Shown piece after piece: positions 2,359-31,937 of a stretch of DNA of 31,937 bases (its first letter is position 1; each line of letters begins with the position of its first letter). The notes under the pieces are model-generated. The model saw only the letters and a program-made list of their open reading frames with translations. It was not told the origin of the DNA and ran no database searches. The translations under genes were made by a program, and so were the position numbers. Source of the DNA: Oculatellaceae cyanobacterium bins.114 (GTDB lineage Bacteria > Cyanobacteriota > Cyanobacteriia > Elainellales > Elainellaceae); the NCBI GenBank assembly GCA_033764315.1, contig JANRJA010000128.1, positions 1 through 31,937 of the forward strand, read 5' to 3'.

Positions 2359-2690
2359 CCCGATTCCCTCCAATGGTGTTTCAACCTTCTTCTAGATTAT
2401 GCTTTAGCTCGAACAAGCGGGAGCATTTAACGTTTATGCTTGCCAGAGTGGGAGTACCTGTTTTCAGTAAAAACTCGGTGGTGGGGACGAAGAAAGCTGG
2501 TGGGCGGATGAACAAACTGCTTCGCAGCGACTCCTCACAAAACTTAAATCTAATGGGATGTACCCACAAAATCACTTTTCGAGATATAAGCTTAATCAAT
2601 AAGCACATTCAGATACAGACCCAAACCTTAAAACACGGTAAGGTTTCTGAGTTTTTAATCCTCTACACTTCATCTATTGAAGAGGTTTTT

Positions 2691-4178
2691 ATGGTTTCAA
2701 TGGCAGAAAAGTTAGCCCATTACCCAATGGTGATTGGCAGTGAAACGGTCGCAACGGGCAGCGAAGACTTAATTGATCCTGCCACTGGTAAAGCGTTTGC
2801 CACCGTGGCACTGGGCACCAAAGCGGATGTCGATCGCGCTGTGGCAGCCGCAAAGAAAGCACAACCCGGTTGGGCAGCGTTGTCCTATGGAGAGCGCAGC
2901 GTTGCCTTAATGAAATTTGCAGATGCGCTAGAGGCGCACTCAGAGGAGTTAGCCCATTTAGAGAGTCAGAATGCAGGTAAAGCCTTAAAACTGACAGTCA
3001 ATGGTGACATTCCCTTTGCGATCGATAACCTGCGTTATTTTGCAGCTGTGTTGCGTCGCCAAGACGGAACTGCTGCTGGGGAATATGCAGGGGGTTATAC
3101 CAGCATGGTGCGCCGTGAACCCATTGGTGTGATTGGGGCGATTACTCCCTGGAACTATCCCTTCATGATGGCAGCTTGGAAGATTGGGCCAGCGATCGCG
3201 GCTGGTAATGCCATCGTCCTCAAACCCGCTCCCAACACGCCCATCACAACCATTCGTCTGGCTGAAATTGCCCTCGAAGCCGGACTCCCTGAAGGCATCA
3301 TCAATATCGTTACAGGGGGTGTTGAAGTGGGTGAAGCCCTCTGTACTCACCCAGACATTGGCATGATCAGCTTTACAGGCAGCACTCGCACAGGCAAACG
3401 AGTGGCAGAACTTGCCAGTCCTTTGATCAAGCGTCTTAGTTTAGAGCTAGGCGGCAAAGCCCCTTTTGTCGTGTTCGCTGATGCTGATATCGAAGCCGCA
3501 GCGCATGGTGCAGTGGTGGGTGCCTATGCCAACTCTGGTCAAGATTGCACCGCTGCTACCCGCATTTATGTGCAAGAAGAAGCGTTTGACGCCTTTTTGA
3601 CTCGCTTTACTGAACTTTCTAAGCAAGTAAAAGTGGGTGCTCCCTTTGATGAAGACACCGACATTGGCCCTCTGTCGAGCCAAGCGCAACTAAACAAAGT
3701 CAAAAGCTATATCGAAGAGGCAAAGCAGCAAGGCATTCAGGTCATCACCTGTAGCGAAGTGCCCTCGGAGGGGTTCTATTGTGCGCCAACGATTATCGTA
3801 GACCCGCCTCAAACAGCCAGTTGTGTTTGTGAAGAAATCTTTGGGCCAGTGATTGTGGTTAAGCGGTTCTCTACAGAAGAAGAGGCGATCGCTCTGGCAA
3901 ATGATACCCCCTATGGTTTAGCAGGCAGTTGTTGGACACTTAACGTGCAACGCGCCATGCGCATGGCAAAAGCTATGCAATGCGGCACAGTGTGGATCAA
4001 TGACCACCTGCCGATCGCCAGTGAAATGCCCCACGGTGGCTTTAAAATGAGCGGTTTTGGCAAAGATATGTCGCACTATGCCCTAGACGAATACACCATC
4101 GTTAAACATGTTGTCTTCGACATCACAGGTGAGCAGCGCAAGGGCTGGCACTTCACCACCTTTGGCAAAGCAGATTAA
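2691..4178 (+). CDS. NAD-dependent aldehyde dehydrogenase, gamma-aminobutyraldehyde dehydrogenase (PatD/Prr-like)
   Basis: PWNYP, KPAPNTP, FTGST, LELGGKAP, NSGQDCTA (catalytic Cys), EEIFGPV and SEMPHGGFKMSGFGKDMS. Start at ATG 2691 after GAGG; the ORF-track extension to 2373 is not ALDH-like. Confidence 0.88.
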   Translation: MVSMAEKLAHYPMVIGSETVATGSEDLIDPATGKAFATVALGTKADVDRAVAAAKKAQPGWAALSYGERSVALMKFADALEAHSEELAHLESQNAGKALKLTVNGDIPFAIDNLRYFAAVLRRQDGTAAGEYAGGYTSMVRREPIGVIGAITPWNYPFMMAAWKIGPAIAAGNAIVLKPAPNTPITTIRLAEIALEAGLPEGIINIVTGGVEVGEALCTHPDIGMISFTGSTRTGKRVAELASPLIKRLSLELGGKAPFVVFADADIEAAAHGAVVGAYANSGQDCTAATRIYVQEEAFDAFLTRFTELSKQVKVGAPFDEDTDIGPLSSQAQLNKVKSYIEEAKQQGIQVITCSEVPSEGFYCAPTIIVDPPQTASCVCEEIFGPVIVVKRFSTEEEAIALANDTPYGLAGSCWTLNVQRAMRMAKAMQCGTVWINDHLPIASEMPHGGFKMSGFGKDMSHYALDEYTIVKHVVFDITGEQRKGWHFTTFGKAD

Positions 4179-5499: not shown

Positions 5500-6174
5500 T
5501 CACCTTGGGCGCGATCGGTAATAGTGCCAGAGTAGATGTGCTACCGCACCCCGATAGGGGTCTAACGGCTGAGTCAGTGAGAGCAATTCTGAACGAGTGG
5601 GGCGATGGTCAAGGGATTTGAGCCGTTGATAACCAACTTGAATCGCTAAATCGGACGCTGGAAAACTATTCAACCGATTCAAACAAAACAACAAGTAAAC
5701 TTCAGCCGTCCAAACTCCAATTCCCTTGATCTGAGTCAGTTGCTCAACCATGAATGCGTCGGGTACGGGGGCAATGTCTCCCAACGGTGAGGCTTACATC
5801 GCCTCCAAACTCAACTGATGGGTCAAAATTGCTTCTGCCAATCGCTGACATGTGGCGATTTTGGCTTGGCTCAACCCGGCTTGTTTTAGCGACAGGTCTG
5901 AACAATTGACCCAGTGGTTAGGAGTGAGTTCAATCAGTTGGGTTAATCGCTCAAAAATTGCTCGTGCCGCCTTAGAAGACAACTGCTGCCCCACAATAAT
6001 TCGCACGAGTGACGCAAAACCGGGCGGCCACTGACGAACTTTTAATGCTCCTGCCTCAACTTCAACCCGTTTAAAAGTGCGATCGCGCTCACACACTACT
6101 TCCACAGCCTGTCTTAGCTCAAGGCTGGGCAACACCAGGTCATCGGGTAATGGGGAGGGCACACTAGGCTGCAT
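5500..6174 (-). pseudogene. alkA: DNA-3-methyladenine glycosylase II (AlkA/HhH-GPD family), interrupted by an in-frame TAA inside a 24-nt insertion
   Basis: The N-half (GFASLVRIIVGQQLSSKAARAIFERL, GLSQAK) and C-half (HhH IKGIGVWTAEVYLLF, FPASDLAIQ, PYRGAVAHLLWHYY) are in the same frame, separated by TAA at 5794-5796. Removing 5776-5799 gives an open 216-aa ORF from ATG 6174. Confidence 0.88.
5776..5799. mobile_element. 24-nt SDR-like hairpin element inserted in a HIP1-like octamer
   Basis: GCAAT[GTCTCCCAACGGTGAGGCTTACAT]CGC; the empty site is GCAATCGC (one mismatch to HIP1), and the insert folds into a bulged stem-loop. Confidence 0.7.
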
Positions 6175-6918
6175 CGTGAAAGATAATTCCCAAACAAAAC
6201 CTCTGTCCTGAATGCAAGGAGCTAACCCCATGCTTTAGATTGACTCGATAGGTTCCTCTGGTGCCTTGCACCGGACGATGACTCACGGCAAAAATTACAG
6301 CGTCTCCTTGTTGCAAATTGAGCACATGCACTCGTGACTGAGAGCGTGGTTTTTGTTCTGTTAAGACGAACTCACCCCCCATAAAGTCTTGCCCTGGCTG
6401 ACTCAGTGCGATCGCCACCTGAAGTGGAAAGGTTAACTCTCCATACAAATCCTGGTGCAGACAGTTATAGTCGCCTGTTTCATACTTTAACAACAGCGGA
6501 GTGGGTCGGGTTTGACCTGCTTGATGACAGGTTTCTAAAAAGCGATCGCTCTCATTAGGAAAGCGAGTTTTGAGTTCTAAGGCTTCATGCCAGCGATTGG
6601 ATAGGCTTACTAGTTGAGGATAAAGGCTCTCTCGCAAATTTTGAACAATCGTGGGCAAGGGATATGCGAAATATTGATATTCCCCTTGCCCAAAGCGATA
6701 CTGCTCCATCACAATCCGGCTGCGAAATAGCGTTTTATCAGCGTAACAAGCCGCCAACTGGTGGCACTCACAGGGGTTTAACAGGGAGTTGAGAGTTGGA
6801 ACCCCTGGCGATCGAGCGTTTCTAGAATGGCTGACCAATCCAAGGTGTCAATTCTCTCTGCGACTGAGAGAGGGTCTGGAGCTGAGCCAGGTAAGACTCG
6901 ATTTGAATGCAATTGCAT
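6164..6918 (-). pseudogene. 2OG-Fe(II) oxygenase, Oxygenase-NA/DUF2086-like, with a 1-nt frameshift near 6797-6801
   Basis: The main frame has FRSRIVM..FGQGEYQYF, NCLHQDLYG (HxD), GGEFVLTEQ and LKHGVS..R..LGIIFHDA. The family-like N-terminus (ERIDTLDWSAILETLDRQGF) lies in another frame, from ATG 6918 to TAA 6778-6780. Could also be a sequencing error. Confidence 0.78.
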
Positions 6919-6935
6919 AGAGTGAAGGGCTGAGT

Positions 6936-6966
6936 GTTGAGTGGATTTCGGCTACGCTCAACCCAC
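6936..6966. repeat. Short dispersed palindromic repeat (GGTTGAGCGTAGCCGAAATCC type)
   Basis: GTTGAGTG..CGCTCAAC inverted repeat enclosing ATTTCGGCTA; resembles dispersed cyanobacterial repeats as I recall them. Confidence 0.45.
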
Positions 6967-7018
6967 TGGTTTCAATCCACAGATTATGAGAGTGCTGAGC
7001 GCAGTCAAAGCACGGTTG

Positions 7019-8116
7019 CTAGAACAGGGATGGCTGACTAAGAGCGGATTCTTTGTCTAAGAGGGCTTGTTTGCGATCGCTCCCCCAGCGATAGCCCCTC
7101 AAACTGCCATCACTGCCAACGACTCGGTGACAGGGAATCGCCACCGCAATCGAGTTGTTGGCACAGGCATTTGCTACGGCTCGAACCGCTTTGGGTTTAC
7201 CGATACGTTGAGCGACTTCGGCATAACTGACGGTTGTGCCCGGTGCGATCGCCCGTAGTGCCTGCCAAACCTGCTGTTGAAAAGCAGTTCCCTGAACATC
7301 AAGGGGTAGATCAAGCCCTTGTTGAGGCGTGTCAATCAAACGCAGCACCTGCTCAACCCAGGTCTTAAATGCTACATCTCCTTTAAAGAACTGAGCCTTG
7401 GGAAAATCAGTTTGGAGTTGGGTCGTGAGCTGATCTGGAGTGTCACCAAAGGCGATCGCACAAATCCCCTTAGCCGTTGCAGCAATCAGCACCCACCCTA
7501 ACCAACACGGTTGCACTGTGTACTGAATTTCAATTCCATCAGCCCCTTTTTGATATTGAGAGGGAGTCATCCCCAGCAGAGCAGCGGACTGATCATAAAA
7601 GTTACTGCTGGTCTCAAATCCAGCTTCATAAATAGCTTGAGTCACGGTGTTACTCTCCTGTAACTGATGTCGGATTCGCTTAGTTCGGTGGGCAATCGCA
7701 TATTGTTTAGGCGTAATTCCCACAATTTCCTTAAACACTCGATGAAAGTGGTAGGTACTCAATCCAGCCATCTGCGCCATTGTCTCTAAAGCAGGCAATG
7801 TATCAGAGGCTTCAATGTGCTTACAGACTTCAGCAATGCGCTCAGCCTGTTGTCGGTGAGGCGAAGCCGAATTTGGGCTGCACCGCTTGCAGGGGCGAAA
7901 GCCAGCTATTTCTGCCTCAGTGCAGTTCTCAAAAAACAACACGTTTTCTCGTTTGGGTTGCCGTGATGAACAAGTCGGGCGGCAATAAACGCCAGTCGTT
8001 TTAACCGCATAGAGAAACCTGCCATCAGCGTCAGGATGCTTGTGGATTAGTGCTTCCCAGCGTTCAGCCTCGGTCAAATTAGGAGTCGTTTCGGGGGTCG
8101 TGATGATCTGAGTCAT
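7019..8116 (-). CDS. ada: Bifunctional transcriptional activator / O6-methylguanine-DNA methyltransferase Ada
   Basis: N-terminal Zn/methylphosphotriester motifs VKTTGVYCRPTC and GFRPCKRC, an AraC-type HTH (SxYHFHRVFKEIVGITP) and the C-terminal PCHRV active site. Start at ATG 8116 (MTQIITT). Confidence 0.96.
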   Translation of the reverse strand: MTQIITTPETTPNLTEAERWEALIHKHPDADGRFLYAVKTTGVYCRPTCSSRQPKRENVLFFENCTEAEIAGFRPCKRCSPNSASPHRQQAERIAEVCKHIEASDTLPALETMAQMAGLSTYHFHRVFKEIVGITPKQYAIAHRTKRIRHQLQESNTVTQAIYEAGFETSSNFYDQSAALLGMTPSQYQKGADGIEIQYTVQPCWLGWVLIAATAKGICAIAFGDTPDQLTTQLQTDFPKAQFFKGDVAFKTWVEQVLRLIDTPQQGLDLPLDVQGTAFQQQVWQALRAIAPGTTVSYAEVAQRIGKPKAVRAVANACANNSIAVAIPCHRVVGSDGSLRGYRWGSDRKQALLDKESALSQPSLF

Positions 8117-8165
8117 AGCTCTGATACGGAGGTAAAGATGCTTGAAACGCTTGTGAACTGATTGC

Positions 8166-9203
8166 CTACGCTTGAGAGCGGTCAATCACCGGAGGAATGT
8201 CGCTGCGGCGATGAGGGGCATTAACATAAGGGAACGTTGCACGCGGGAGTTGCGGATCAACCCCTGCTGAGATGGGGCGATTTGTGATGCGAGTCATAAG
8301 AACATCGTAAACGTTATCTGTGAGCGATCGCCCATTCACTCCATTCATTGAAAATGCGGCTACAGTGCCAACCTGGTAAGGCATTGCCACTGGAATCACA
8401 TAGGTATCTGTGACCCGTTCAGCATAGGTTTTTGCATCAGCGATCGCACTGGTCGTAGACACCACCTGGGTTAAATACTCAACCGCATGTTCTCGCTCAT
8501 GAGTAGTCCAATCAAAAGGATGAGCACTGTTGAAAGCATCAAACTCTCCGGGCTTTCCGGCAATCATAAAGGCCGCTAACGGCATACCCCAACGAGAGAC
8601 TTGTTGATAGCCGCCATCAGGCTCTAAACCAGTAATCGTTCCCCAAACTCGAATCAAGTTTGAGTTTCCACCCAACCTCTCATTTGGTAACTCCAACACA
8701 ATCGACATGACATCGCGCCCCTCAAACTTGTTGTTGGGTTGCTGGAAGAATGAGTAATCGGGCTGGCCCTTCGCTATGCTCTCCATAAAGCCAAAATAAC
8801 CCACCACATTGGCAACAAACGGATCGGCAATTAGCCCTGCCCAGACCCGACCACCCGTTTCTAAATGAACGATTTTTTCGAGTCTATCTGCTTGGGCGAT
8901 CGCTATTCCAGGCTCCTCACGGGGAGCACTCCACCCTTGTTGCTCAGAGAGTGTCCAACTGCCATCGGCAGAGGATCTCAACCGATAGCGCAGATCTTCC
9001 TTGAGATCGCCATCTAAATCAATGTTGAGGTCATACGTCGCATCAGGATGAAATGCCTCAGGAGATGATTTGCCGGATCCAGCATCGGGTCCGCTATTGA
9101 TGACAAATACAGTGGATGCGGCTGACGCAGGAAATACATACAGGTCGGTCAAGTTCAATCGACCATCTACTTTTGCGGTCGGAGAATTGAAGTGGTGAGA
9201 CAT
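8166..9203 (-). CDS. DUF4331 family protein
   Basis: MSHHFNSP..RLNLTDLYVF N-terminus, WAG..ADPF, DVMSIVLELP, QVSRWGMP, NGRSLTDNVYD and FPY motifs as recalled for DUF4331; AGGAG RBS; no signal peptide. Confidence 0.78.
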   Translation of the reverse strand: MSHHFNSPTAKVDGRLNLTDLYVFPASAASTVFVINSGPDAGSGKSSPEAFHPDATYDLNIDLDGDLKEDLRYRLRSSADGSWTLSEQQGWSAPREEPGIAIAQADRLEKIVHLETGGRVWAGLIADPFVANVVGYFGFMESIAKGQPDYSFFQQPNNKFEGRDVMSIVLELPNERLGGNSNLIRVWGTITGLEPDGGYQQVSRWGMPLAAFMIAGKPGEFDAFNSAHPFDWTTHEREHAVEYLTQVVSTTSAIADAKTYAERVTDTYVIPVAMPYQVGTVAAFSMNGVNGRSLTDNVYDVLMTRITNRPISAGVDPQLPRATFPYVNAPHRRSDIPPVIDRSQA

Positions 9204-9231
9204 TGAGAATAGCTCCTACTTGGGGGGTACA

Positions 9232-9287
9232 GGTCTATTCTCTGGAAATGGCACTCTGACAACTATCTGTTTCTTGCGGTGTAATTT
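9232..9287 (-). promoter_or_regulatory. Ada box with a putative Ada-activated promoter
   Basis: Minus strand AAATTACACCGCAAGA (9287-9272) fits AAT-N6-GCAA and matches 14/16 of the E. coli ada operator AAATTAAAGCGCAAGA as recalled. It is followed by TTGTCA (9262-9257), 19 nt, then TAGACC (9237-9232). Confidence 0.72.
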
Positions 9288-9381
9288 GATAGGCAGAAGA
9301 GTCAAGGGGGAGTGGGGTAAAAGGTTAATTGGAAAGGCGATACAGTAGAGACAAGTTGGTTTAGTAGTTGCAATCAGTTCT

Positions 9382-10158
9382 ATGTCTCTAGCCAAACCCT
9401 ACGTTGAACAAACCGACCCGCCGCGCTCTCCAAGAGAGACACTACCGACGATGTATGATCTTCCCTGTGAAGATCCCAACGAACCCGGTTTGCCTGACGA
9501 ATATCACTACCTTCAACCGCAGTTTCTCAGTGCTACGTTTCGACTGAGTGACTACGCAGCTGACCAAATCTTCACCACTGGAGATATGAATCTCTACTAT
9601 GACGTGCGTCATCCTCTCTGGCACAAACGCCCCGATTGGTTTGCGGTGGTGGGTGTCCCTCGTTTGTATGACCAGCAAGATTTGCGTCTGAGTTATGTGA
9701 TGTGGCAGGAGGGTGTTAGCCCCAGCATAATTGTGGAACTGCTCTCACCGGGTACGGAGGATGAAGATTTAGGGAGAACCGAGCGAGAAACAGAGTCTCG
9801 ACCTCCGACCAAATGGCAAGTCTACGAGCAAATCTTGCGGGTGCCCTACTATGTCGTGTTCAACCGATATACTGATGAACTGCGTGCCTTTACGCTGGTT
9901 TCGGGGCAATATCAAGCCATGAATTTGGCTGAATCTCGTATTTGGATGCCCATGCTTAATATTGGTCTAGGGCTGTGGCAAGGTGAAGAACGAGGCATTA
10001 CTCGCCAGTGGCTCCGTTGGTATGATGCAGAGGGTAATTGGATTCCAACAGAGACAGAACGGGCACAGCAAAGGGCAGAGCAGGCACAGCAAAGGGTAGA
10101 CCAGTTGGCTGAGCGGTTGCGATCGCTCGGTATTGACCCCGATGCAATTGGCGAATAG
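9382..10158 (+). CDS. Uma2 (DUF820) PD-(D/E)xK-like putative endonuclease
   Basis: LPTMYDLP..EPGLPDEYH, KRPDWF, LRLSYVMWQEG, IVELLSPGT, KWQVYEQILRVPYY, WLRWYD and a C-terminal coiled coil ending LRSLGIDP. Confidence 0.92.
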   Translation: MSLAKPYVEQTDPPRSPRETLPTMYDLPCEDPNEPGLPDEYHYLQPQFLSATFRLSDYAADQIFTTGDMNLYYDVRHPLWHKRPDWFAVVGVPRLYDQQDLRLSYVMWQEGVSPSIIVELLSPGTEDEDLGRTERETESRPPTKWQVYEQILRVPYYVVFNRYTDELRAFTLVSGQYQAMNLAESRIWMPMLNIGLGLWQGEERGITRQWLRWYDAEGNWIPTETERAQQRAEQAQQRVDQLAERLRSLGIDPDAIGE

Positions 10159-15962: not shown

Positions 15963-16127
15963 TAAGTGCGGGTCGGTTGAGTCTGCTCAGCCTGAGTGCT
16001 GAGCAATTGCCTGTCATCTATTTACCCTCTACTTCCTGCCTTGATTACTTGCAGTCGTTGAACTGCACCGTTATATTTTCTCTAGTCGCTGTTGAATGCA
16101 TTATTTGCCCCTCCCTCTGAAAATGAA

Positions 16128-19100
16128 ATGAAGATGAATATGTCACCCCTGCCCCGCATCAAGGATTGTGTTAGCCAACAGTTGCCTCAAAGAGGGTTGG
16201 CGGTTGGCGGGGTGCTGTTGGCGTGTGGCAGTGTTTTGAGTGGCAGTGTTTTAATCAGCACCCCAGCCCTGGCTCAAATCGTTCCAGACAACTCGTTGGG
16301 AGCAGAGCGATCGCGCATCAACGAAAACGTGCAACGAGGCAATCAACTGATTGATCAAATCACGGGTGGGGCGGCGCGTGGCTCCCTGTTATTTCACAGT
16401 TTTGAAACCTTTAACGTGCAGCGAGGGCAACAGGTTTATTTCACTAACCCGTCTGGAATCAATTCTATTCTCAGCCGAGTCACAGGGAACGACCCGTCCG
16501 ACATCTTAGGAACGTTGGGCGTAGACGGAAACGCTAATCTGTTTTTGATCAACCCAAATGGCATTCTCTTTGGTGCTGACGCTCGGCTAGATATTCGCGG
16601 TTCGTTTGTGGCAAGTACAGCCGATCGCCTCTTATTAAATGATGGGTTGGAATTTAGTGCTGTGAATCCTGAAGCACCGCCATTATTAGTGGTGAGTTTG
16701 CGTCCCGGTCTGCAACCGGGGGGAGTGCCACTCGGTTCGACGATCGCCAGTGCAGGTAATTTGTCAGTGGGTCAAGATTTGACCCTGGTGAGCGATCGCC
16801 TCAACTTAACCGGACAGCTTCAATCAGGTCGCAATTTGACACTGTTAGCCAATGATGTGCAAATTCGAGATACTCCCTCGACTCCCTTTATTGCCAGTGC
16901 CACAGGGCAACTGTTGGTGCAGGGCGATCGCACGGTGGATATTTTCGCACTCAACCATCCCAATAGCGGGCTGTTTGCAGGGGGCGATCTAGTGTTGCGA
17001 TCGCCCAACCCTGTGACGGGAGATGCCCACTACACGGCGGGCGGCAACTTTCGCATTGAGCAACCCAACGGTGAAGCTGGAGCGTTGACCAGTCCCAATG
17101 ACCCGGTGATTCGGGCGGGCGGTGATGTCCGCTTTGGGACGTATACTGGTGCATCGCTGCACATTTTTGCAGGAGGGGCTGTTACGATCGACAGCGTTGA
17201 AATCAATGCACCTGACCCAGCCAACGGCATTCAAGAAACCGTTAACTTGTCCAACGGTGGAACGGTTGCCATCGATGGCAGAACCCGACCCACCCTCGAC
17301 ATTCGCGCCGGAACAACAGCAGTGGGGACACCTGGAGTGACAGGTACTCCTCCAGCAGATCTAGACACGACAGGTGCAGCCACATCTGGGGCGATCGCCA
17401 TCAACTCGATTCGCATCAGCCAACCCAATGGCTTGGTGTTTTTGAGCAACCAATATCAGCCCAATCTTGCTCTGACCAGTGGCCCAATTCGAGTTGGGTC
17501 GGTGAACCTAGCCAATGATGCTGGGGGCGGTTCGGTGGTGATTGATGCTCGCGATCGCCTGCAAGTGAGTGGGGTGGTCGATACATCAGCCGTTACGGGC
17601 AATGCGGGTAACGTGCAATTCCTGGCAGCGGGTGATCTGGAGCTACAGCCCGGATCAGAGATTCGAGCACGGGGGCTAATTGGTGGGGCGATCGCCCTTC
17701 GTAGTGGGGGCAATTTATCCTTTGTTGGGGATAATGATGAAGCCCCTGAAGGCATTCGGTCGGTCACGACAGGAAATGGCACAGGCAGCAATGTAACGTT
17801 AGAGGCTCCATCTATTTTTGTCGGCAATAGTGAAATTTTAATTACCCTGGCGGAAGGAGCCACGGGACGAAGCGGTGACCTGATCATTCGAGCAGGGTCA
17901 TTTGCGACGGACTTTGTCACCATTGTGACCGATGTATTGGGTACAGGCTCTGGAGGCAATGTGTTGATCGAGGCAGATACGATCAACATGAATAACGTTT
18001 TTTTAGGCAGCGTTGTTGCTGAAACTGGGGTAGGTGACAGCGGCAACCTGACCGTTAACGCGCGATCGCTCTCAGCTCTGTTTGGCACTCAAATCGGTTC
18101 TTTTACCGCAGGGCAAGGCAACGCAGGTGATGTCACAATCAACGCCAGTGAATCGGTCAGCTTTGATGGGTCTTTGTTCATTCCACCCCCAGATCCGCTT
18201 TTTTTCCCAAGTGGTGCGTTTAGCACTGTGCAGTTTGGGGCAATCGGCAGTGGCGGCAATCTTAGTATTACGACTCCGACTCTCTCGGTAACGAATGGGG
18301 CACAGTTGCGAACCAGTACAGAGGGTAGTGGCTCTGGGGGAGTCATCACCATCAACGCCACGGATGTCACCTTTGATGGCACGACATCAAATGAGTTAGT
18401 GGGAGTATCTCCCTCAGCGGCGGTGAGTGAGGTGTTGCGCGGGTCTGATGGCAGCGGAGGTGATATTCGGATCACGGCTCAAAACTTGTCAGTGACCAAC
18501 GGAGCACAACTACGAGTCAGCACAGAAGTAGCTGGAGATGCTGGAAGTATTCAAGTCAATGCCCCAGAATCCATTACTCTGTCAGGTGCTGATCCCACTC
18601 GTCGCCGCCTCAGTGGATTGTTTGCTGATACGCAACCAGGTTCAACCGGAAATAGTGGCAGCATTACCGCAACCAGCGATCGCATTTCGCTTGAAAATGG
18701 TGCTCAAATCGTAGTTGGTAGTCGGGGCACAGGTCAGGGAGGCGACATTCGCCTTCGAGCAAATCGCCTGTCTCTCAACAATGAAGGCTTTATCTCAGCC
18801 GAAACTGCCAGTAGTCAGGGAGGCAACATTAACTTACAGGTGCGAGACTTGACCACATTGCGAGACAACAGCCGCATCTCGACGACCGCTGGAACCGCTA
18901 GAGCGGGGGGTGATGGAGGAAATATCACCCTTAACTCTGAGTACATCGTGGCCGTTTCTACCGAAAATAGCGACATCACTGCAAATGCCTTTGAAGGACG
19001 AGGCGGCAATATCCGTATTACTACACAGGGCATTTTTGGCATCGAATTTCGCGAAGAAAACACCCCCCTCAGTGATATTACGGCAACGTCGGAGTTTGGG

Positions 19101-19511
19101 GTGGATGGCTTTGTTGAGATTAATCGCCCAGATGTAGACCCCAGTCGCGGCTTGGTTGCCCTTCCTGCGGATGTGGTGGATGCTTCACAACTCATTACCA
19201 GAGGCTGCTCTGCGGGAGGGACACTGGCTCAAGAACTGGGTGAATTTGTGGTGACAGGACGGGGTGGTTTACCCCCCAACCCAATCGAACGCCTTGCTAA
19301 TGATTCTGTGTTGGTCGAATGGGAAACCTTAGAGGCTGAAACCCCGGGTGTTACTTCAGTGGAAATTCCTCTTGTGGTCGCACAAACCCAGCCGATCGTA
19401 GAGGCACAAGGGTTAGTCAGACAACCCAATGGACGAGTCGTGCTGGCAACTCAAACCACACAGGTGACCCCTCATAACCCCTGGATTGCCCAAACTACCT
19501 GCCGGGGTTAA
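16128..19511 (+). CDS. Filamentous haemagglutinin family exoprotein (TpsA-like beta-helix)
   Basis: Signal peptide ending PALA-QIVPD, haemagglutination-activity domain (LFHSFETFNV, NILSRVTG-like, LFLINPNGI), repeated G(N/D)(A/G)G.I.I coils and the conserved C-terminus FVVTGRGGLPPNP..IVEAQG. Start could be 16128, 16134 or 16140. Confidence 0.92.
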   Translation: MKMNMSPLPRIKDCVSQQLPQRGLAVGGVLLACGSVLSGSVLISTPALAQIVPDNSLGAERSRINENVQRGNQLIDQITGGAARGSLLFHSFETFNVQRGQQVYFTNPSGINSILSRVTGNDPSDILGTLGVDGNANLFLINPNGILFGADARLDIRGSFVASTADRLLLNDGLEFSAVNPEAPPLLVVSLRPGLQPGGVPLGSTIASAGNLSVGQDLTLVSDRLNLTGQLQSGRNLTLLANDVQIRDTPSTPFIASATGQLLVQGDRTVDIFALNHPNSGLFAGGDLVLRSPNPVTGDAHYTAGGNFRIEQPNGEAGALTSPNDPVIRAGGDVRFGTYTGASLHIFAGGAVTIDSVEINAPDPANGIQETVNLSNGGTVAIDGRTRPTLDIRAGTTAVGTPGVTGTPPADLDTTGAATSGAIAINSIRISQPNGLVFLSNQYQPNLALTSGPIRVGSVNLANDAGGGSVVIDARDRLQVSGVVDTSAVTGNAGNVQFLAAGDLELQPGSEIRARGLIGGAIALRSGGNLSFVGDNDEAPEGIRSVTTGNGTGSNVTLEAPSIFVGNSEILITLAEGATGRSGDLIIRAGSFATDFVTIVTDVLGTGSGGNVLIEADTINMNNVFLGSVVAETGVGDSGNLTVNARSLSALFGTQIGSFTAGQGNAGDVTINASESVSFDGSLFIPPPDPLFFPSGAFSTVQFGAIGSGGNLSITTPTLSVTNGAQLRTSTEGSGSGGVITINATDVTFDGTTSNELVGVSPSAAVSEVLRGSDGSGGDIRITAQNLSVTNGAQLRVSTEVAGDAGSIQVNAPESITLSGADPTRRRLSGLFADTQPGSTGNSGSITATSDRISLENGAQIVVGSRGTGQGGDIRLRANRLSLNNEGFISAETASSQGGNINLQVRDLTTLRDNSRISTTAGTARAGGDGGNITLNSEYIVAVSTENSDITANAFEGRGGNIRITTQGIFGIEFREENTPLSDITATSEFGVDGFVEINRPDVDPSRGLVALPADVVDASQLITRGCSAGGTLAQELGEFVVTGRGGLPPNPIERLANDSVLVEWETLEAETPGVTSVEIPLVVAQTQPIVEAQGLVRQPNGRVVLATQTTQVTPHNPWIAQTTCRG

Positions 19512-19695: not shown

Positions 19696-20052
19696 AAAGT
19701 TCATCAAGTCACCGGGGTCTCCGTAAAATTTCGGTGAAGGTTCGATCTATCACTTCGGTTTTCCTCTCGATTTGTGTAAATATCTTGGTCATAGATACAT
19801 TGAAATAATAAAAGCTGGACTCTTTTTCGACGTGGACTAGTTACGCCATCAGGGACAAGCCGTTTTTGCACACGATGCCTTCATTGGCGATCGCTGTTTG
19901 AATTAATCGCAAATTTAGGGTTACGCAGGGATGGATCAGTTCTGTTGAGATGAACTGGTTTGCATCCTCTATTTAGTTTCGTTTACCAGCCCTCAGTTGC
20001 CTGCTGTTGGGTGAAATTTTGTTGTTCCGCTGCCGTCTTTGGAGAGCCTACA

Positions 20053-23000
20053 ATGCCAGTCTTACAAGGTGTTGATCGTCACGCTACGTCTATCCAAGCC
20101 CGTTTAAACACGATCATTCATTTAGCGGCTAATTACGATCGCCCATCCTCCCTATCCATCCGCTCTCCTCGCCCCCTTGTTTGCATCGATCGCACCGTGC
20201 CTGACTACTACAAGCTAGTCAATGGGACGGTCTCCGACTGTGATATCGCGTTGTTAGACTCCCGCGAAGATGGCATTCTGCAAATTACCAATGCGCTGCG
20301 TCACTATCAATCCGTGACAGTGCTGCATTTGGTGTCTCATGGTAAACCGGGTCGGCTCTATCTGGGCAACAACGAGCTAAACGAAACCACGATTGAATAT
20401 TACGCCGATGCACTGCGTCAGTGGTCAAATTTGCTAGCACCAGAGGCCATGATTTTGGTGTATGGCTGCTCTGTCGCGGCTGAGGATACAACCCTATTAC
20501 ACCGACTACATGAGTTAACCGGACGGGCGATCGCCGCTTCTAGCACCCCCACCGGAGATGCGGCTCAGGGCGGCAACTGGGATTTAGATGTCGTCATTGG
20601 TGCAGACGCGATCGCAGATACAGACGCGATCGATTCTAGTACAGATGCGATCGATTCTAGTACAGACGCGATCGATTTTAGTACAGACGCGATTAATCGC
20701 GTCTCTTCCCCCTTTACCACGATTAATCGCGTCTCTATCCCTTCACCCTTCATTACAGACGCGATTAATCGCGTCTCTTCCCCCTTTACGCCTGAAACCC
20801 TCGCCACCTATCGCGGTCTGCTCGCCATCTTTACGGTGACGAATACCAACGACACTGGAACGGGTTCATTACGACAAGCGATTCTTGATGCGAACGCAGC
20901 AGGGGGCGCAGACGAAATTCGCTTCAATATCGCCGGGGCAGGGCCACACACGATTACTCCCTCGACGGCTCTGCCTACCATTACTGGACAGGTGACGATT
21001 GATGGCACAACGCAACCGGGTTTTGCAGGCTCTCCCCTGATTGTAATCAGTGGGAGTAGCATTCCCACTGGAACTGGGTTGTCGTTGAGTACTAGCAGCA
21101 GCACCATTCGTGGACTGGTGGTCAATGGGTTTAGCGGCAGCGGTGGCAGAGGTATCTCAATCGCTGGTTCTGACAACGTCATTGAAGGCAACATCATTGG
21201 TCTAGCAGCCGATGGCACAACCGTTGCAGCCAACGCACAAGGGATCGATATTTCCTCCGGCAACAACAACCTGATTGGAGGCACCACAGCGAGTGCCCGC
21301 AACATAATCTCTGGTAACAGTGGAGTGGGTATCCGAGTTTTTGATGCCACTGCAACCACGATTCAAGGAAACTACATTGGTACCGATGTCAATGGCAACG
21401 AGGATCGGGGGAATCTCTTTGGAATTCAGCTGAATTCCTCGTTAACATCGCCCGGTTTGACCATTGGTGGTACAACAGCAGCGGCTCGTAACGTCATCTC
21501 AGGCAATGGCACAGGCATCGTTCTACTCAACGGCAACAGTTCAACGATCGCCGGAAACTACATCGGGGTCAATGCGGCGGGAACAACGGCTGTAGGTAGC
21601 GTTGCCTCTAACTTCACAGGTATTCAAGTTCTTACAGCTAGCAATACAATTGGTGGCACAACGGCGGGAGCAGGCAACGTGATTTCGGGTGTTAACACTG
21701 GAATTGTGGTTGCAGGAGCAGGTTCCACTGCAAACCAGGTGCAGGGCAACTTGATTGGCACCAATGCTGCCGGAACTGGAGCGATTATTAATGGAACTAC
21801 AGGGGTAAGTATATCGGGGGTAGGGAACACCATCGGGGGTTCTGCGACAGGGGCAGGTAATGTCATTTCTGCCTTCCAGTTTGGAATAACAGTTGCTGGA
21901 ACAGACCACGTCATTCAGCAGAACCGAATTGGTACGAATGCGGCTGGAAGCGCATCACTCGGTAATGTTCAGGCTGGCATTCAAGTTAACACCGGTGCCA
22001 ATAACCTGATTGGCGGCACAACCGCTGCCGAACGCAACGTTATTTCAGGCACCTTCTTTGGGGATGGCATTCAGTTACTCAACAGCTCGACTGGCAACCA
22101 GATCTACGGCAACTACATTGGCACTAATGCCGCCGGAACTGGAGCGATCGCCAATGGTAATAATGGTATTTTGATTGACTCTGGGAGCAGCAACAACCTG
22201 ATTGGGGGGACAGTAGCTGGTCAGAGCAACATCATTGCCAACAACACGCAAGATGGGGTGGCGATCGCGGGCACGGGCACGGGCAACCAGATCCAGGGCA
22301 ACAGCATTTTCAACAACGGGCAACTGGGCATTGATCTGGGCAACAACGGTGTGACCGCTAACGATGTTGGTGATGGCGACACCGGAGCGAATGGGTTGCA
22401 AAACTTCCCGGTGATTACAGGATTGACTGACGGCAATATTAGCGGTACTCTCAACAGCACACCGAGCACGACTTTCCGAATTCATTTCTTTGACAACACC
22501 GCCGCCGATGGCAGTGGCAATGGGGAAGGGCAGCGATCGCGCGGGTTTCAAGACATCACCACCGATGGCAGCGGCAATGCCACGTTTAACTTTGGCTATG
22601 CGGCTGAGGCGGGAAGACCCGTTGTTACGGCGACAGCAACGAGTCTAAGTACAGGCAATACCTCTGAGTTTTCTGTTGCTGTCAATCCTCTAGTCGTCAC
22701 CAACACCAACGACAGTGGACTTGGCTCACTGCGAGCGGCGATCGCCTATGCCAACAGTGTTTCCGGTGCCCAAACGATCACCTTCAACATTCCCGGTGCA
22801 GGTCCGCACACGATTAGCCCACTGACTAACCTGCCTGACATTACTGGACAAGTCACGATTGACGCAACAACGCAACCGGGCTATGCAGGCACTCCGTTGA
22901 TTGCGCTGAATGGCTCACTCAATGGGTCGCCTGTTGATATTGGTTTTAACCTGCGCCCTGGCTCAGATGGCAGTGCCTTTAAGGGATTGGTGATCAACAA

Positions 23001-26000
23001 TTTTGATTTCGCTGCGTTCTTCGTCGAATCGAATGGCAACACCTTCCAGGGAAATTACATTGGCACAAACGTTGCCGGAACCGTTGATCAAGGCAATGGG
23101 GGTGGCTTTAGCATCAGTGGCAACAACAATATCATCGGTGGCGCTGGCGCGAATGAAGGCAATCTGATTTCAGGAAATGGTTACGGAATTAGCCTGGTTG
23201 GAAATGGCAACACCATTCAAGGCAACTTGATTGGTACAGATGTCACCGGACTAGTTGGACTTGGCAACACCTTTGAGGGCATCGCTCTAACACTTTCGAC
23301 CGGCAACACGATTGGAGGCACAACGGCAGCCGCCCGAAATGTGATTGCGGCAAATGGCGACGATGCGATTAGCCTGATTACCCAATCCAATGGTAACTTC
23401 ATCCAGGGCAACTACATTGGGGTGGGTACTGACGGTGCTACGGCATTGGGCAATGGCAATCGCGGGATTTACCTACAAGAATCCTCTAGCAACGAGATCA
23501 CAGACAACGTCATCTCAAACAGTGCGACCAACGGAATTGAACTGTTTGGCCCCAGTAACCTGTCTGACAACAACATTATCCAGGGCAACTTCATCGGCAC
23601 CGATGCCGCAGGCACCCTTGATTTAGGCAACACAGGTGCAGGCATTCTTTTGCGCGGTGGTGCTGACAACAATACGATTGGTGGCACGACTGCCGCTGCC
23701 CGCAATATCATCTCTGGCAACGATACCAATGGCATCACCATTACCAATGGTGCAACAAGTAACACGATCTTAGGCAACTACATCGGCACAAATGCTGCTG
23801 GAACAGCTGATTTAGGCAATAGCTTAAATGGCGTGTCAATTGAGGACGCAGGAAATAACTTGGTGGGTGGTTCGACATCTGGGAGCCGCAACGTTATCTC
23901 AGGCAACAACCAGATTGGGGTGAATATTGCGGGAGCAACGGCAATAAACAATACAGTAATCGGGAACTACATTGGCACCAACGCCGCAGGGACGGGGGCG
24001 ATCGCCAATGGCTCTGGCAATGTCACCGATGCTGGTGTGTACATCATTGATGCAATCAACAACACCATTGGAGGATTTAGCTCAGACGAGCGCAACGTCG
24101 TCTCTGGTAACAATGGCACAGGGATCATTCTCTCCGATGGTGCCACCGAAAACTCGGTGCGGGGCAACTACATAGGCACCCAGGTGGACGGTACGAGCGC
24201 GTTGGGCAACTCCATTGGTGGGATTCGCATTCAAAATGGAGCCTTCGAGAATAGCATTGGTGGCGCGATCACTGGAGCGGGTAACACGATCGCCTTCAAC
24301 ACCTTTGAAGGAATTGCAATTCCTTCCGGTGTCAACAACTCAATCTTGGGGAATTCCATCTTCTCGAACACCGCATTAGGCATTGATCTAGGAACTGATG
24401 GGGTGACGGCTAACGATGCAGATGATGTAGATGGAGGAGCCAACAATCTCCAAAACTTCCCGGTACTGACGGCTGCCACCGTAGTTGGTGGTAATACCAC
24501 CCTTGCGGGAACGCTGAATACCACTGCCAATACCAACATCCGCATTGAGATCTTCAGTAACGATGCAGCGGATGGCTCCGGCAATGGTGAGGGACAAACC
24601 TTCCTCACGGCGATTACAGCAAATACCGATGGCAGCGGCAACTACACCATCAATGAAGTGATTGCCCAAGACCTAACAGGCAAGTTCATCACAGCGACTG
24701 TCACCAATCTTAACGGGGATACTTCTGAGTTTTCGGGAACGATCGAAGCGTTAGCGGGTGGTGATCCGTTAGTTGTCACCAACACCAACGACAGCGGGGT
24801 TGGTTCTCTGCGAAATGCGATCGCCTTTGCCAACAGCAACCCCGGTGCTGATGTCATTACCTTTGACACCACCTCTGGTTCTCCCTTTGCCGACGCAACC
24901 CCCGACACGATCTCGCTCACCTCGGGTGGTTTTAAAATCATCGATAGCGTCACCCTGACAGGCTTAGGTGCAAATCTGCTCACGATTCAACGCGATGCAG
25001 GAGCCAGTGATTTCCGCTTATTTACCATCGAAGGTATTGGCGGTTCAGATATTACAGTCACATTTGAGGGATTAACGCTATCAGGGGGGCGATCGATCGG
25101 TGCAGAGGGTGGCTATTTTGGAGGAGGTGCCATCTACAACTTTGAGGAAAGTGTCCTGATTCGTAACAGTGCTCTGATCAATAACTTCTCCGATAATGAC
25201 GGTGGGGCGATCAGCTCTACTGGACTCTTGACCATTGAAAATAGCTTAATTGCAAACAACACCGCAGATAGGGGAGGTGGGATCAACATCGACAGCACTT
25301 CTGATGATCCGCCTCACACCACCGTTGTCAGCAACAGCACGATTTCTGGTAACACGGCTACGTTTGAGGGTGGAGGTATTTATACCACGTATGGATCAAC
25401 CCAAATTCGGAATAGCACCATTACCAACAACACTGGACTGGATGGAAGCGGTAGTGGGGTTGCTAGCAGCAGCAACACTACAGTAGAAGTCGTGTCTAGC
25501 ATCATTGCAGGGAACACCAACTCCGATGTTGATGTGATTGGAGCATTTGACAGCTTCTTTACCAGTTTAGGAAATAACCTGATTGGCACAGGAAATACAG
25601 AGGCGATCGCTGCTTTCACCCAACCAACCGACATCACAGGGATCACTGACCCTGGATTGAATCCCTTAGACGATAATGGTGGACCTACCCAAACCCATTC
25701 TCTAACCGATACCAGCCTCGCTCGTGACACAGGCAGCAACCCCGATGGGCTAACAACCGACCAACGCGGAGCAGGCTTTCCACGGGTATCGAACGGCAAT
25801 ATCGACATTGGGGCATTTGAGTTTTTTGTTAATCCACTCATTGTCACTAACACCAACGATAGTGGGGCGGGTTCTCTAAGGGCGGCGATCGACTTTGCCA
25901 ACAGCAACCCTGGATCTGACACGATTACCTTTGACACCGCCTCAGGCGTCTTTGCAGACTTAACACCCGACACAATTTTGCTCACCTCGGGTAGTTTTGA

Positions 26001-29000
26001 AATCATCGAAAGTGTTACCATCACGGGCTTAGGTGCCAACCTGCTGACGATTCAACGCGACACGTTAGCTCCCGATTTTCGCTTATTCACCATTGATGAT
26101 GGCACTGCCTCCCAAATTACCGTTGACATCAGTGGATTTACCCTCAGTGACGGAATCTCTGATAACGGTGGTGCGATCCTCAACCGCGAGAATTTGGTCA
26201 TCAGCGATAGTGTCATTAATAACAACACGGCTGTCATTAGCGGCTTTGATACTGGCAGTGGCGGAGCCATCTGGAATGAAGACGGTAGCCTCAATATTCT
26301 CAACAGTCTCATCACAGGAAACGAGGCTGGTGATCAAGGAGGTGCAATTTGGAGTAATAACGGTGCAATTAACATTCAAGCCAGTCAAATCTCCAACAAC
26401 ACCGCTGATGGCAGTGGCGGTGGCATCTTCAGCAACCGGGGTAGCTTGGACATCCTGACCAGTACCATTTCAGGTAACACAGGAACATTCACGTTTGGAG
26501 ACGGGGGTGGCATCTGGCACTTTGGAGATGGCTTGGGCGAAGATTTGACGATTACAGCCAGCACCCTCTCTGGTAATAGCACAGGCGGCAGCGGCGGGGG
26601 TCTCTGGACGAGTACTGTTTTAGGTGACACATCCGCCACTATTCTTAGCAGCACAATCTCAGGCAATAGCGCAGACGATCGCAGCGGCGGCATTCAAAAC
26701 GATAACGGTCTGCTGACGATTAGCAACAGCACGATCACCAATAACACTGCTCCAGCAGGTCAGGGCAGCGGTGTTGGTAGCTTTTCAGGTATCTCTTCTA
26801 CCCGTACTGAAGTGCTCTCCAGCATCATTGCGGGTAACGTCGGTAGCGACATTGATGTTTTGTTTGGTTCAGATAGCTCGTTTGTGAGCAATGGCAATAA
26901 CCTAATCGGTACAGGCGAAGCAGTGGCGATCGACTCCTTTAACCAACCGACCGACATTACAGGAGTCACTAACCCTGGACTAAATCCGTTAGCTAACAAC
27001 GGTGGCCCGACTCAAACCCATTCCTTGACCGACACTAGCCTGGCTCGTGATGCAGGCAACGCAAATGGGCAAACGCGAGATCAGCGGGGCTTTCCACGGG
27101 TGATTGGCAGCAGTGCTGATATTGGTGCGTTTGAGGCAGATGAAGTAGTTGACCCCCTGATCGTCACCAACACCAATGACAGTGGGGCGGGTTCACTCAG
27201 AGCCGCCATTGATTTTGCCAACAGCAACCCCGGTGCAGACAGCATCACCTTTAACATTCCCACCAGCGATCCGGGCTATAACTCTGTCACTGGTGCATAC
27301 ACGATTAACCTACTCTCTGAGTTGCCATTCATCACAGAAACCATCAGCATCGACGGCAGTAGCCAACCCGGATTTGCAGGCGCACCCATCATTGAACTGA
27401 ACGGAGCCACTATTGGTGGGTCAACCTTCTCTGGCATCTTGTCGTTGGGTGGTGCAGATAACAGCGTCATTCGAGGATTGGTGATTAACAACACTCCGGC
27501 ATTGGCAATTCAGGTCAGTGGTGGAAATGGCATTGTTATTGCTGGAAACTACATCGGCACCGACGTGACGGGTACAGTTGCCCAAAATGGCAGCAGCTTT
27601 GGGATTTTACTATCGGGTGGCTCCAATACATGGATTGGGGGCACGACCGCGAGCGATCGCAACCTCATCTCCGGCAACGCCAGCGGAATTGCCATCGGCT
27701 TTGCGTCGAGTACTCAAATTCAGGGTAACTACATTGGTACTGATGCTACAGGAACAGTTGCGCTTGGAAACGGCACAGGAATTGACTTCTATTCAGGCCT
27801 CTTTGATACCAACAACGTAGTGGGAGGCGTAGTAGACGGGGCACGCAACATCATTTCTGGTAACACCAACAATGGCATCCTATTTAGAGGTGGGGCACAA
27901 GGAAACCAGGTTCTTGGCAACTATATTGGTCTAGATGCCAATGGCATCGCTTTAGGCAACGGCAGCAACGGCATCCAGCTTGAGTCAGGAGCCATTAACA
28001 ACACCATTGGTGACACGACCTTTGAAGGACGCAACGTTATTTCAGGTAATACGGGCAACGGCATTCTTATCACGGGCGGTGGCACGACCAACAATACAGT
28101 TATCGGTAACTACATCGGTACGAATGCGGCGGGAACGGGGGCGATCGCCAATGATGGCAACGGTATTCGGATTAGTGGCAACGGCAACATCATTGGTGGT
28201 TCCACCGCTGGGTCAGGCAACGTCATCTCCGGCAACGGCGACCAGGGGATTGCGATTCTGGGCAACAACAACACTGTGCGGGGCAACATCATCGGTTTAG
28301 ATGCTGATGGTTCAACGGCTTTGGGCAACCTGGATGACGGTATTTTGATTGCCAACGGCTCAAACAACACAATCGGTGGAACGACAGCGGGCGATCGCAA
28401 CGTCATCGGCAGCAACAGTAATAACGGGGTTTCCATTTCTGGTAGCAGTGCCATTGGTAATACCGTCCAGGGCAATTACATTGGGACGGCTGTAGATGGC
28501 ACCACTGCTCGTGGCAATGGTATTCACGGGGTTTCTATCGGTAACAGTGCCGCAAACAACTCGATTGGTGGCACAACCGCTGGTTCCAGCAACTTGATTG
28601 CCAACAACGGTGCTGATGGCGTGTCGGTGTTTGGTAACACCACGACGGGTAATACTGTTCAAGGCAATAGCCTCTTTAACAACGCCGATTTAGGAATTGA
28701 TCTGGGTAACAACGGCGTCACGGCTAATGATGCAGGCGATGGCGACACAGGAGCCAACGGGCTGCAAAACTTCCCGATCATTACAGCGGCGACTCTCAGT
28801 GGTGGCAACACTCTGTTAGCGGGCACCTTTAACAGCACTGCCAACACTAACTTCCGGTTAGAATTCTTCAGCAATTCAACCATTGACCCCTCTGGCAACG
28901 GAGAAGGAGGACAGTTTTTAGGATTTGCCAACGTCACCACCGATGGCTCTGGCAACGCCACCTTCAACCCAACCTTTGCAATAGCCGTTCCATTGGGGCA

Positions 29001-31780: not shown

Positions 31781-31937
31781 CCCAAAAATCCGTTTAATAT
31801 CCCTCTTTGGTCACTCTAAGCAGATGAAAAGATGAGTTGCAGGTTTAACTCATGTACGAGTGGACAAATAAACGTATTCATCTTGCGGGTTAATTGCTCA
31901 AAGCCGACCTGAAGTGAAGCAATCGGGAAAACCTCTA

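Follow-up and report, generated by a model that had tools for sequence, protein, structure and literature searches.

Few additions have been made to the Ada response, a textbook regulon whose classic members in Escherichia coli number four. In that species, ada and alkB belong to an autoregulated operon with repair genes, and the accepted Ada core, AAT(N)6GCAA, is made up of the A and B boxes, which are read by Ada residues R45 and R71, according to the available portion of Mielecki et al. (2013; PMC3788762). The same portion of that article describes a putative alkA-ada operon in Pseudomonas putida. We present here an Ada locus from Oculatellaceae cyanobacterium bins.114 (GenBank assembly GCA_033764315.1), found on contig JANRJA010000128.1 in a stretch of 31,937 nucleotides that was analyzed whole and is called the window below. 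Its minus strand carries four co-directional genes, encoding a DUF4331 protein, Ada, a PF09859 (Oxygenase-NA) 2-oxoglutarate (2OG)-Fe(II) oxygenase, and an AlkA-like glycosylase. The DUF4331 gene is probably a member of the Ada regulon, standing first behind what is the sole Ada-box promoter of the genome.

The locus resembles E. coli ada-alkB in its control site and regulator. The ada box of E. coli K-12 (NC_000913.3), AAATTAAAGCGCAAGA, shares 13 of its 16 positions with the window box. It stands 64 nt upstream of the ada ATG, compared with 68 nt between box and first ATG in the window, and the two Ada proteins have the same domain set. As in the E. coli operon (PMC3788762, available portion), we propose autoregulation together with repair genes. 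The locus differs in that its first cistron is DUF4331 rather than ada, its oxygenase is of family PF09859 rather than AlkB, alkA lies inside the operon, and two of the genes are broken. The P. putida operon, as given in the same part of that source, is alike in having another gene ahead of ada behind the Ada box, with ada not promoter-proximal; the leading gene there, however, encodes a known repair glycosylase, whereas the leader in the window belongs to an uncharacterized family without a repair-like fold or residues.

The loose core AAT-N6-GCAA is not significant alone (8 occurrences in the window versus 6.3 expected), and AAT-N6-GCAAGA occurs 84 times in the 6.6-Mb genome. A weight matrix of 24 columns was built from the ada-upstream sites of 10 relatives, with the window site left out, and both strands of the genome were scanned. 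The window box ranked first of 13,262,960 positions with 28.8 bits, the runner-up scored 21.4 bits, and the training sites ranged from 27.2 to 35.4 bits. The window site agrees with all 15 columns that are invariant among the sites of the 10 relatives (alignment A3), and the aligned sites give the cyanobacterial Ada-box consensus GAATTAGACCGCAAGAAT-nn-GAT. Downstream of the box, AATAGACCTGTA is common to the window and to the ada promoter of L049, the closest reference Ada locus (72%). Because a matrix made from relatives alone places this site first genome-wide, we take it to be a genuine and genome-unique cyanobacterial Ada box. The putative core promoter that follows it, TTGTCA-N19-TAGACC, is not called by a simple sigma-70 scan, as expected for an activator-dependent promoter. 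Mapped by eye, CRPTCSSR and RPCKRC in the window Ada appear to keep the box-reading residues R45 and R71 and the zinc cysteines. At the end of the window (31881-31937), a sequence containing AATTAACCCGCAAGA recurs at a fixed distance (about 43 nt) from contig ends of this genome, namely those of C7, C84, C119, C120, C166, C184, and C213; the element is a repeat (an insertion sequence end or similar) that breaks the assembly, and it inflates counts of Ada-core-like motifs.

The layout is operon-like: all four genes share a strand, the gaps measure 49 and 100 nt, one pair overlaps by 11 nt, and no terminator-like site was found in the gaps (Table 1). A scan of the gaps for sigma-70-like sites was also negative, and GC content is flat across the DUF4331-ada cluster and uniform with the neighboring genes. 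The DUF4331 protein begins MSHHFNSP, has no hydrophobic leader, and contains no cysteine anywhere; a search of the whole genome with PF14224 matched this gene only. Pfam assigns Ada_Zn_binding, HTH_18 (an AraC helix-turn-helix), and DNA_binding_1 (MGMT) domains to the ada product, which scores 443 bits against the Ada equivalog NF011964 (cut-off, 345) and shows the motifs CRPTCSSR, RPCKRC, and PCHRV. Besides this Ada, the genome holds one separate MGMT-only gene, and a search of the assembly, which is 90.7% complete, found no AlkB, no second oxygenase, and no second AlkA. As assembled, the operon is the entire Ada regulon of the genome.

Much of the original prediction, which was made from the letters alone, stands on this evidence. 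The box that it named is the top matrix site, its promoter and AGGAG ribosome-binding site are present where it put them, and the E. coli ada site that it gave was found in the K-12 sequence. Re-reading of the locus returned the same four genes, gaps, and overlap; the profile match bears out the assignment to DUF4331, the N-terminus bears out the lack of a signal peptide, and box position and gene order agree with DUF4331 as the promoter-proximal gene. If the E. coli mechanism applies, Ada methylated at its N-terminal zinc-cysteine site would bind the box at 9287-9272 and drive a single transcript of DUF4331, ada, the damaged oxygenase gene, and alkA.

Table 1. Features of the DUF4331-ada locus in the window
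Feature	Position	Strand	Remarks
Ada box	9272..9287	-	AAATTACACCGCAAGA; extended conserved site ~9266-9289; 68 nt before DUF4331 ATG
Putative core promoter TTGTCA-N19-TAGACC	9232..9262 (TTGTCA 9262-9257, TAGACC 9237-9232)	-	Sequence reading
Ribosome-binding site AGGAG	9213..9217	-	9 nt before DUF4331 ATG
DUF4331 gene	8166..9203	-	PF14224, 90.9 bits (cut-off 27), E 1.4e-25; 345 aa, intact
DUF4331-ada spacer	8117..8165	-	49 nt; no Ada box, promoter-like, or terminator-like site
ada	7019..8116 (ATG 8116)	-	Full-length, bifunctional regulator and methyltransferase, intact
PF09859 (Oxygenase-NA) 2OG-Fe(II) oxygenase gene	6164..6918 (ATG 6918)	-	Pfam 279.9 bits on 6838-6167 frame; frameshifted; ATG 100 nt after ada
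alkA-like HhH-GPD glycosylase gene	5500..6174 (ATG 6174)	-	Overlaps oxygenase gene by 11 nt; in-frame TAA at 5796-5794

Divergently from the Ada-box promoter, a gene for a Uma2-family putative endonuclease occupies positions 9382-10158 (+), and the intergenic region of 178 nt is common to both.

The window Ada was searched in 201 genomes of the class, of which 75 matched, and 20 full-length ada loci were examined. DUF4331 was found within about 7 kb of ada in none of these 20 loci (tblastn; L050 has only 162 nt upstream), and AAT-N6-GCAA lies directly upstream of ada in 10 of them; for these reasons, the simplest reading is that the DUF4331 gene was inserted between the ancestral ada promoter and ada. 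The original prediction had named relatives with the box directly before ada and no DUF4331 as the mark of a one-off insertion. The insertion is borne out, but its one-off character is not, since the linkage recurs as described below. In these loci, ada-Oxygenase-NA(-alkA) is a recurrent cyanobacterial order (L057:7013-9410 and L053:7019-8905), and ada-Oxygenase-NA is also seen in a Burkholderiaceae metagenome-assembled genome (MAG). Ada regulons without AlkB may as a rule rely on PF09859 for their oxygenase.

The closest homologs of the window DUF4331 are 72-78% identical to it and all come from metagenome-derived records. Linkage among them was assessed by a fingerprint, namely DUF4331 and Ada homologs with an identical longest-contig value in base pairs and the same sources, the Ada side being the top 120 listed. 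Five of the 10 closest DUF4331 homologs pair in this manner with an Ada homolog among the matches listed: P0003 with P0127 (4305 bp), P0004 with P0151 (3681 bp), P0006 with P0150 (9565 bp), P0007 with P0176 (6233 bp), and P0010 with P0154 (20701 bp, both proteins on 7 contigs). As a control, both members of the window pair give 31937, and P0138 gives 345970, the length of the L049 contig. On contigs of 3.7-4.3 kb, the DUF4331 and Ada genes must be neighbors. No matching Ada was among the 120 listed for the remaining five close homologs, whose contigs measure 1.7-4.2 kb or 35 kb; these five are uninformative. The link between DUF4331 and ada that had been read from the window alone thus recurs, by fingerprint, in five other metagenomic contigs. 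Across the five pairs, identity to the window is 72-78% for DUF4331 and 62-75% for Ada; DUF4331 is at least as conserved as Ada, and this speaks for purifying selection acting on it where it now stands.

In a quick tree of Ada sequences, a single 45-row clade (SH-aLRT 94) takes in all six linked Adas. Of the five unlinked Adas known, four belong to the other clade and one, P0138, is nested among linked rows. The linkage label needs two changes on this tree, and 28 of 500 shuffles did as well. The clustering of linked Adas is modest, and gains, losses, or transfer of the cassette appear to have occurred. Profile scans for further relatives gave three distant loci in genome contigs with alignment A1 and none with the single protein, and a scan of metagenome contigs gave six short distant loci, none from the close DUF4331 clade. 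By the fingerprints, the arrangement appears to have persisted in a group of related cyanobacteria for which metagenomes are the sole source, and not to be a one-off; on this reading, DUF4331 would have entered between promoter and ada and then been retained.

The next-nearest DUF4331 clade (40-45% identity) is secreted, with a signal-peptide-like leader whose last residue, Ala, stands immediately ahead of S-H-H. A Burkholderiaceae MAG (L012) provides one member: there, a secreted DUF4331 protein with 42% identity to that of the window heads a DUF4331-DUF4198-AlkB-GST-cupin operon, which converges on oppositely running Oxygenase-NA, Ada, and TauD genes. The AlkB scores 274 bits against NF011930 (cut-off, 267). 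In this locus, the 14-mer TTCGAAAGCAAGAA precedes both DUF4331 (by 82 nt) and ada (by 62 nt); with at most one mismatch, it has exactly two sites in the 3.5-Mb genome, and a reversed control has none. Within it is AAAGCAA, the form that the Ada site takes at E. coli alkA in the available portion of Mielecki et al. (PMC3788762). Because of the gene order, alkB, one of the classic regulon genes, can be reached from the TTCGAAAGCAAGAA promoter only through DUF4331 and DUF4198; the secreted sister clade would here lead an alkB operon under an ada-type motif. L012 is an independent, differently built case of DUF4331 under such a motif. By fingerprint, DUF4331 is also linked to AlkB on another contig of the secreted clade (P0026 with P0243, 3971 bp). 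The pair P0025 and P0312 (6469 bp) was not counted and is taken as coincidence, its AlkB being only 56% identical to that of L012. Divergent from the DUF4331-DUF4198-alkB operon, L012:4430-6864 carries Nramp (Mn/Fe importer family) and ureidoglycolate-lyase-like genes.

Several observations weigh against membership of DUF4331 in the regulon. Besides being absent from the reference ada loci, DUF4331 turned up in no more than 2 of the 401 phylum genomes that were sampled, this genome (G000) among them. The other copy (G080) is 34% identical and sits amid AOX, GMC-oxidoreductase, and epimerase genes. With alignment A2, 301 Actinomycetes genomes were searched and 34 matched, including the unpublished G794, G802, and G830; 18 regions from the others were examined, and none of their 19 short-form DUF4331 genes lies within about 8 kb of Ada, AlkB, Oxygenase-NA, or AlkA. 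Those repair genes are likewise not near the DUF4331 copies of G080, L013, and L014. The metagenomic linkage rests on length fingerprints, with gene order and boxes presumed for those contigs, and the closest named Ada (P0122, 80%) has no listed DUF4331 homolog with the same contig value. The A box of L012 is non-canonical (CTT, or ATT with 5 nt, not AAT-N6). Two repair genes downstream in the window are broken, so that the operon may be decaying. On the side of function, nothing was found that ties metal binding to alkylation repair, and searchable sources held no measured metal binding for any DUF4331 protein. Within the family of G401, DUF4331 matched in 2 of 232 genomes, and in the second of these (L018) no repair gene was seen in 3.9 kb.

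The surroundings of DUF4331 elsewhere are of other kinds. A leaderless copy on a Rhizobium plasmid adjoins a HoxN/HupN/NixA permease, a secreted copy on a Pseudomonas aeruginosa plasmid sits with a c-type cytochrome, DUF4198, and HupE/UreJ, and NicO occurs within 3 kb in 4 of the 18 actinomycete regions (78 of 99 candidate open reading frames [ORFs] scanned). The remaining contexts are miscellaneous and include thiamine pyrophosphate (TPP) enzymes, TetR, and sigma factors. Because the actinomycete regions, L013, and L014 are without repair neighbors, the Ada link is best regarded as confined to a single subfamily, made up of the window clade and the secreted sister clade, and not as a trait of DUF4331 at large. 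TPP enzymes and DUF417 recur beside leaderless DUF4331 genes of unrelated bacteria (L069, L013, L088 [a Mycobacterium abscessus plasmid], and L090), a second type of DUF4331 neighborhood besides that of the Ni/Co permeases. The Pyrinomonadaceae copy in L013 (7001-7716, about 43% identical), between DUF417 and MatE genes, seems broken, its match being split into three pieces that lie in different frames.

These data bear on the main rival explanation, in which the DUF4331 gene came to lie behind the ada promoter while serving some other purpose (handling of nickel, cobalt, or copper, for instance) and is co-expressed through its position, with no role in the alkylation response. We judge this possible but rather unlikely. 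It would account for the insertion relative to all 20 reference relatives and for the other contexts of the family, which are metal permeases or miscellaneous and never repair (0 of 19 actinomycete genes, and the plasmids); it also fits the patchy distribution within the Ada clade itself, where the unlinked P0138 is nested and at least two changes are needed on the quick tree. A chance passenger would not explain, however, why the linkage persists in at least five other diverged contigs, where DUF4331 is conserved no less well than Ada, why GC content is uniform with the neighbors, or why the sister clade independently precedes alkB under an ada-type motif.

The original prediction had overlooked damage to the last two of the four genes, whose reading frames are not intact. 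The oxygenase ATG opens a frame of 46 codons that ends at 6780-6778, and the frame that matches Pfam is 6838-6164; judged against the intact ortholog in L057, the break is a 1-nt deletion near 6797-6805. A programmed frameshift was considered here and dropped, as nothing supporting it was found. The upstream half of alkA alone scores 24.7 bits, below the cut-off of 26.2, and the L057 ortholog is contiguous across the position that matches the window TAA. Because the remaining window ORFs of at least 110 aa are unsplit, including uninterrupted ORFs of 3885 and 1139 aa, we consider both breaks likelier to be real than to be noise of the assembly, in a genome that is a 251-contig draft.

Such damage raises the possibility of a relic, in which the operon is decaying, the oxygenase gene and alkA are already pseudogenes, and DUF4331 and ada have not yet been hit and serve no present function. 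A frameshift and an in-frame stop within 1.1 kb would fit this account, as would the unsplit state of the other ORFs, which speaks against assembly error, and the lack of any spare oxygenase, AlkA, or AlkB elsewhere in the genome. On the other hand, DUF4331, ada, the box, the ribosome-binding site, and the invariant residues are all intact, errors are possible in a draft of this kind, and decay downstream says nothing about an arrangement conserved in other contigs; the relic account is therefore improbable. Still more doubtful, to the point of being very improbable, is that the box drives DUF4331 only, ada being transcribed from a promoter of its own within the 49-nt gap or the 3' end of DUF4331: promoter prediction is poor in cyanobacteria and P. 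putida alkB has basal Ada-independent promoters (PMC3788762, available portion), but no other box-like site in the genome scores above the 21.4 bits of the runner-up, the gap holds no sigma-70-like or terminator-like site, and in the relatives Ada as a rule autoregulates through a box of its own.

Regulon membership, which remains our preferred reading, leaves the role of the protein to be considered, and its N-terminus offers a lead. Of 120 homologs, 100 start M/V/L-[SAGT]-H-H, as the window protein does (MSHH); 8 more have a Met directly before that motif, giving a possible alternative start, 9 have a signal-peptide-like leader ending in Ala directly before S-H-H, and the remaining 3 are fragments or different. 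In 69 sequences, H3 is invariant and S2 and H4 are nearly so. Leaderless and exported forms thus appear to converge on the same mature N-terminus, X-His-His. This end presumably fits the definition of an amino-terminal Cu/Ni (ATCUN)-type site, NH2-X-X-His: a His would stand at position 3 of the predicted mature chain, and the small residue 2 either permits removal of Met or follows the signal-peptidase site. For the window protein, compatibility with such a site depends on removal of Met1, which is predicted from the sequence. A free N-terminal X-His-His, together with the Ni/Co-permease neighbors of the family, suggests metal handling or binding of a transition metal. Anglerases are also metalloproteins with an N-terminal His (PMC12537917, available portion); anglerase and lytic polysaccharide monooxygenase sites use His1, in contrast to His2/His3 in DUF4331. 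The exported DUF4331 proteins beside Ni/Co/Cu-type transporters (DUF4198, HupE/UreJ, NicO, and HoxN) share with the window protein the Pfam family and the mature X-His-His, but the window protein has no leader and no adjoining transporter, and its partners are Ada-regulon genes. Both contexts are joined in L012, where DUF4331 and DUF4198 stand directly before alkB.

An AlphaFold2 model of the window protein (pLDDT, 91.4; pTM, 0.92) is a beta-sandwich with a helical part. Foldseek gave no match at an E value of 0.001 or below against the PDB, and ESM Atlas returned DUF4331 clusters only. In a wide VIA-align search, the best score was Z 8.3 to Sas6 (root mean square deviation, 5.1; 206 aligned), followed by Ig-like domains at Z 5-7; these scores lie within the tool's stated background for models without a clear relative, and we name no fold family. 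A role as a thiol methyl acceptor was dropped, as the protein has no cysteine. The suggestion made at the outset that DUF4331 detoxifies alkylating agents or helps repair found no support, given the lack of cysteine and of a clear relative of solved fold and the occurrence of the family elsewhere beside Ni/Co-type permeases and not repair genes. Our literature searches found no mention of DUF4331 or PF14224.

The mechanism that we would put forward, tentatively, starts from a cytoplasmic beta-sandwich protein whose Ser-His-His, freed by removal of Met, would bind a transition metal. Ni and Co inhibit Fe(II)/2OG oxygenases. It is conceivable, though we hold it less likely than the alternatives combined, that DUF4331 buffers or delivers metal so that the Fe(II)/2OG repair oxygenases of the regulon stay correctly metallated under alkylation stress. 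That the DUF4331 subfamily is a functional part of the alkylation adaptive response, either as a metal-binding accessory made with Ada or as a sacrificial methyl sink, is doubtful at present. In one version, the accessory would keep Ni, Co, or Cu from the AlkB/PF09859 oxygenases or supply Fe(II) to them; in a bolder version, histidines or amines of the protein would be sacrificed to methylating agents. No direct binding to Ada or AlkB is proposed; both of these are cytoplasmic, and the L012 homolog is periplasmic.

An uncharacterized and probably metal-binding first cistron in two lineages would be a new variation on the well-known Ada regulon, with a widespread family standing behind Ada-type promoters in organisms only distantly related. 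A functional link would provide the first physiological handle on DUF4331. It would further suggest that induction of Fe(II)-dependent repair oxygenases goes along with an adjustment of metal handling by the cell, tying alkylation defense to metal homeostasis in a cytoplasmic (cyanobacterial) and a periplasmic (Burkholderiaceae) form. We found no literature on the Ada regulon in cyanobacteria; the consensus given above is usable to map it across the phylum.

Three other genes of the window were noted, all on the plus strand. An aldehyde dehydrogenase ORF at 2373-4178 has about 120 residues ahead of its Pfam match, and its real start is probably well downstream of the first ATG. A protein of 1139 aa with a two-partner-secretion (TPS) domain is encoded at 16092-19508, and one of 3885 aa with DUF4347, beta-helix, Calx-beta, and FG-GAP repeats at 19960-31614; the pair resembles a two-partner-secretion or giant adhesin locus.

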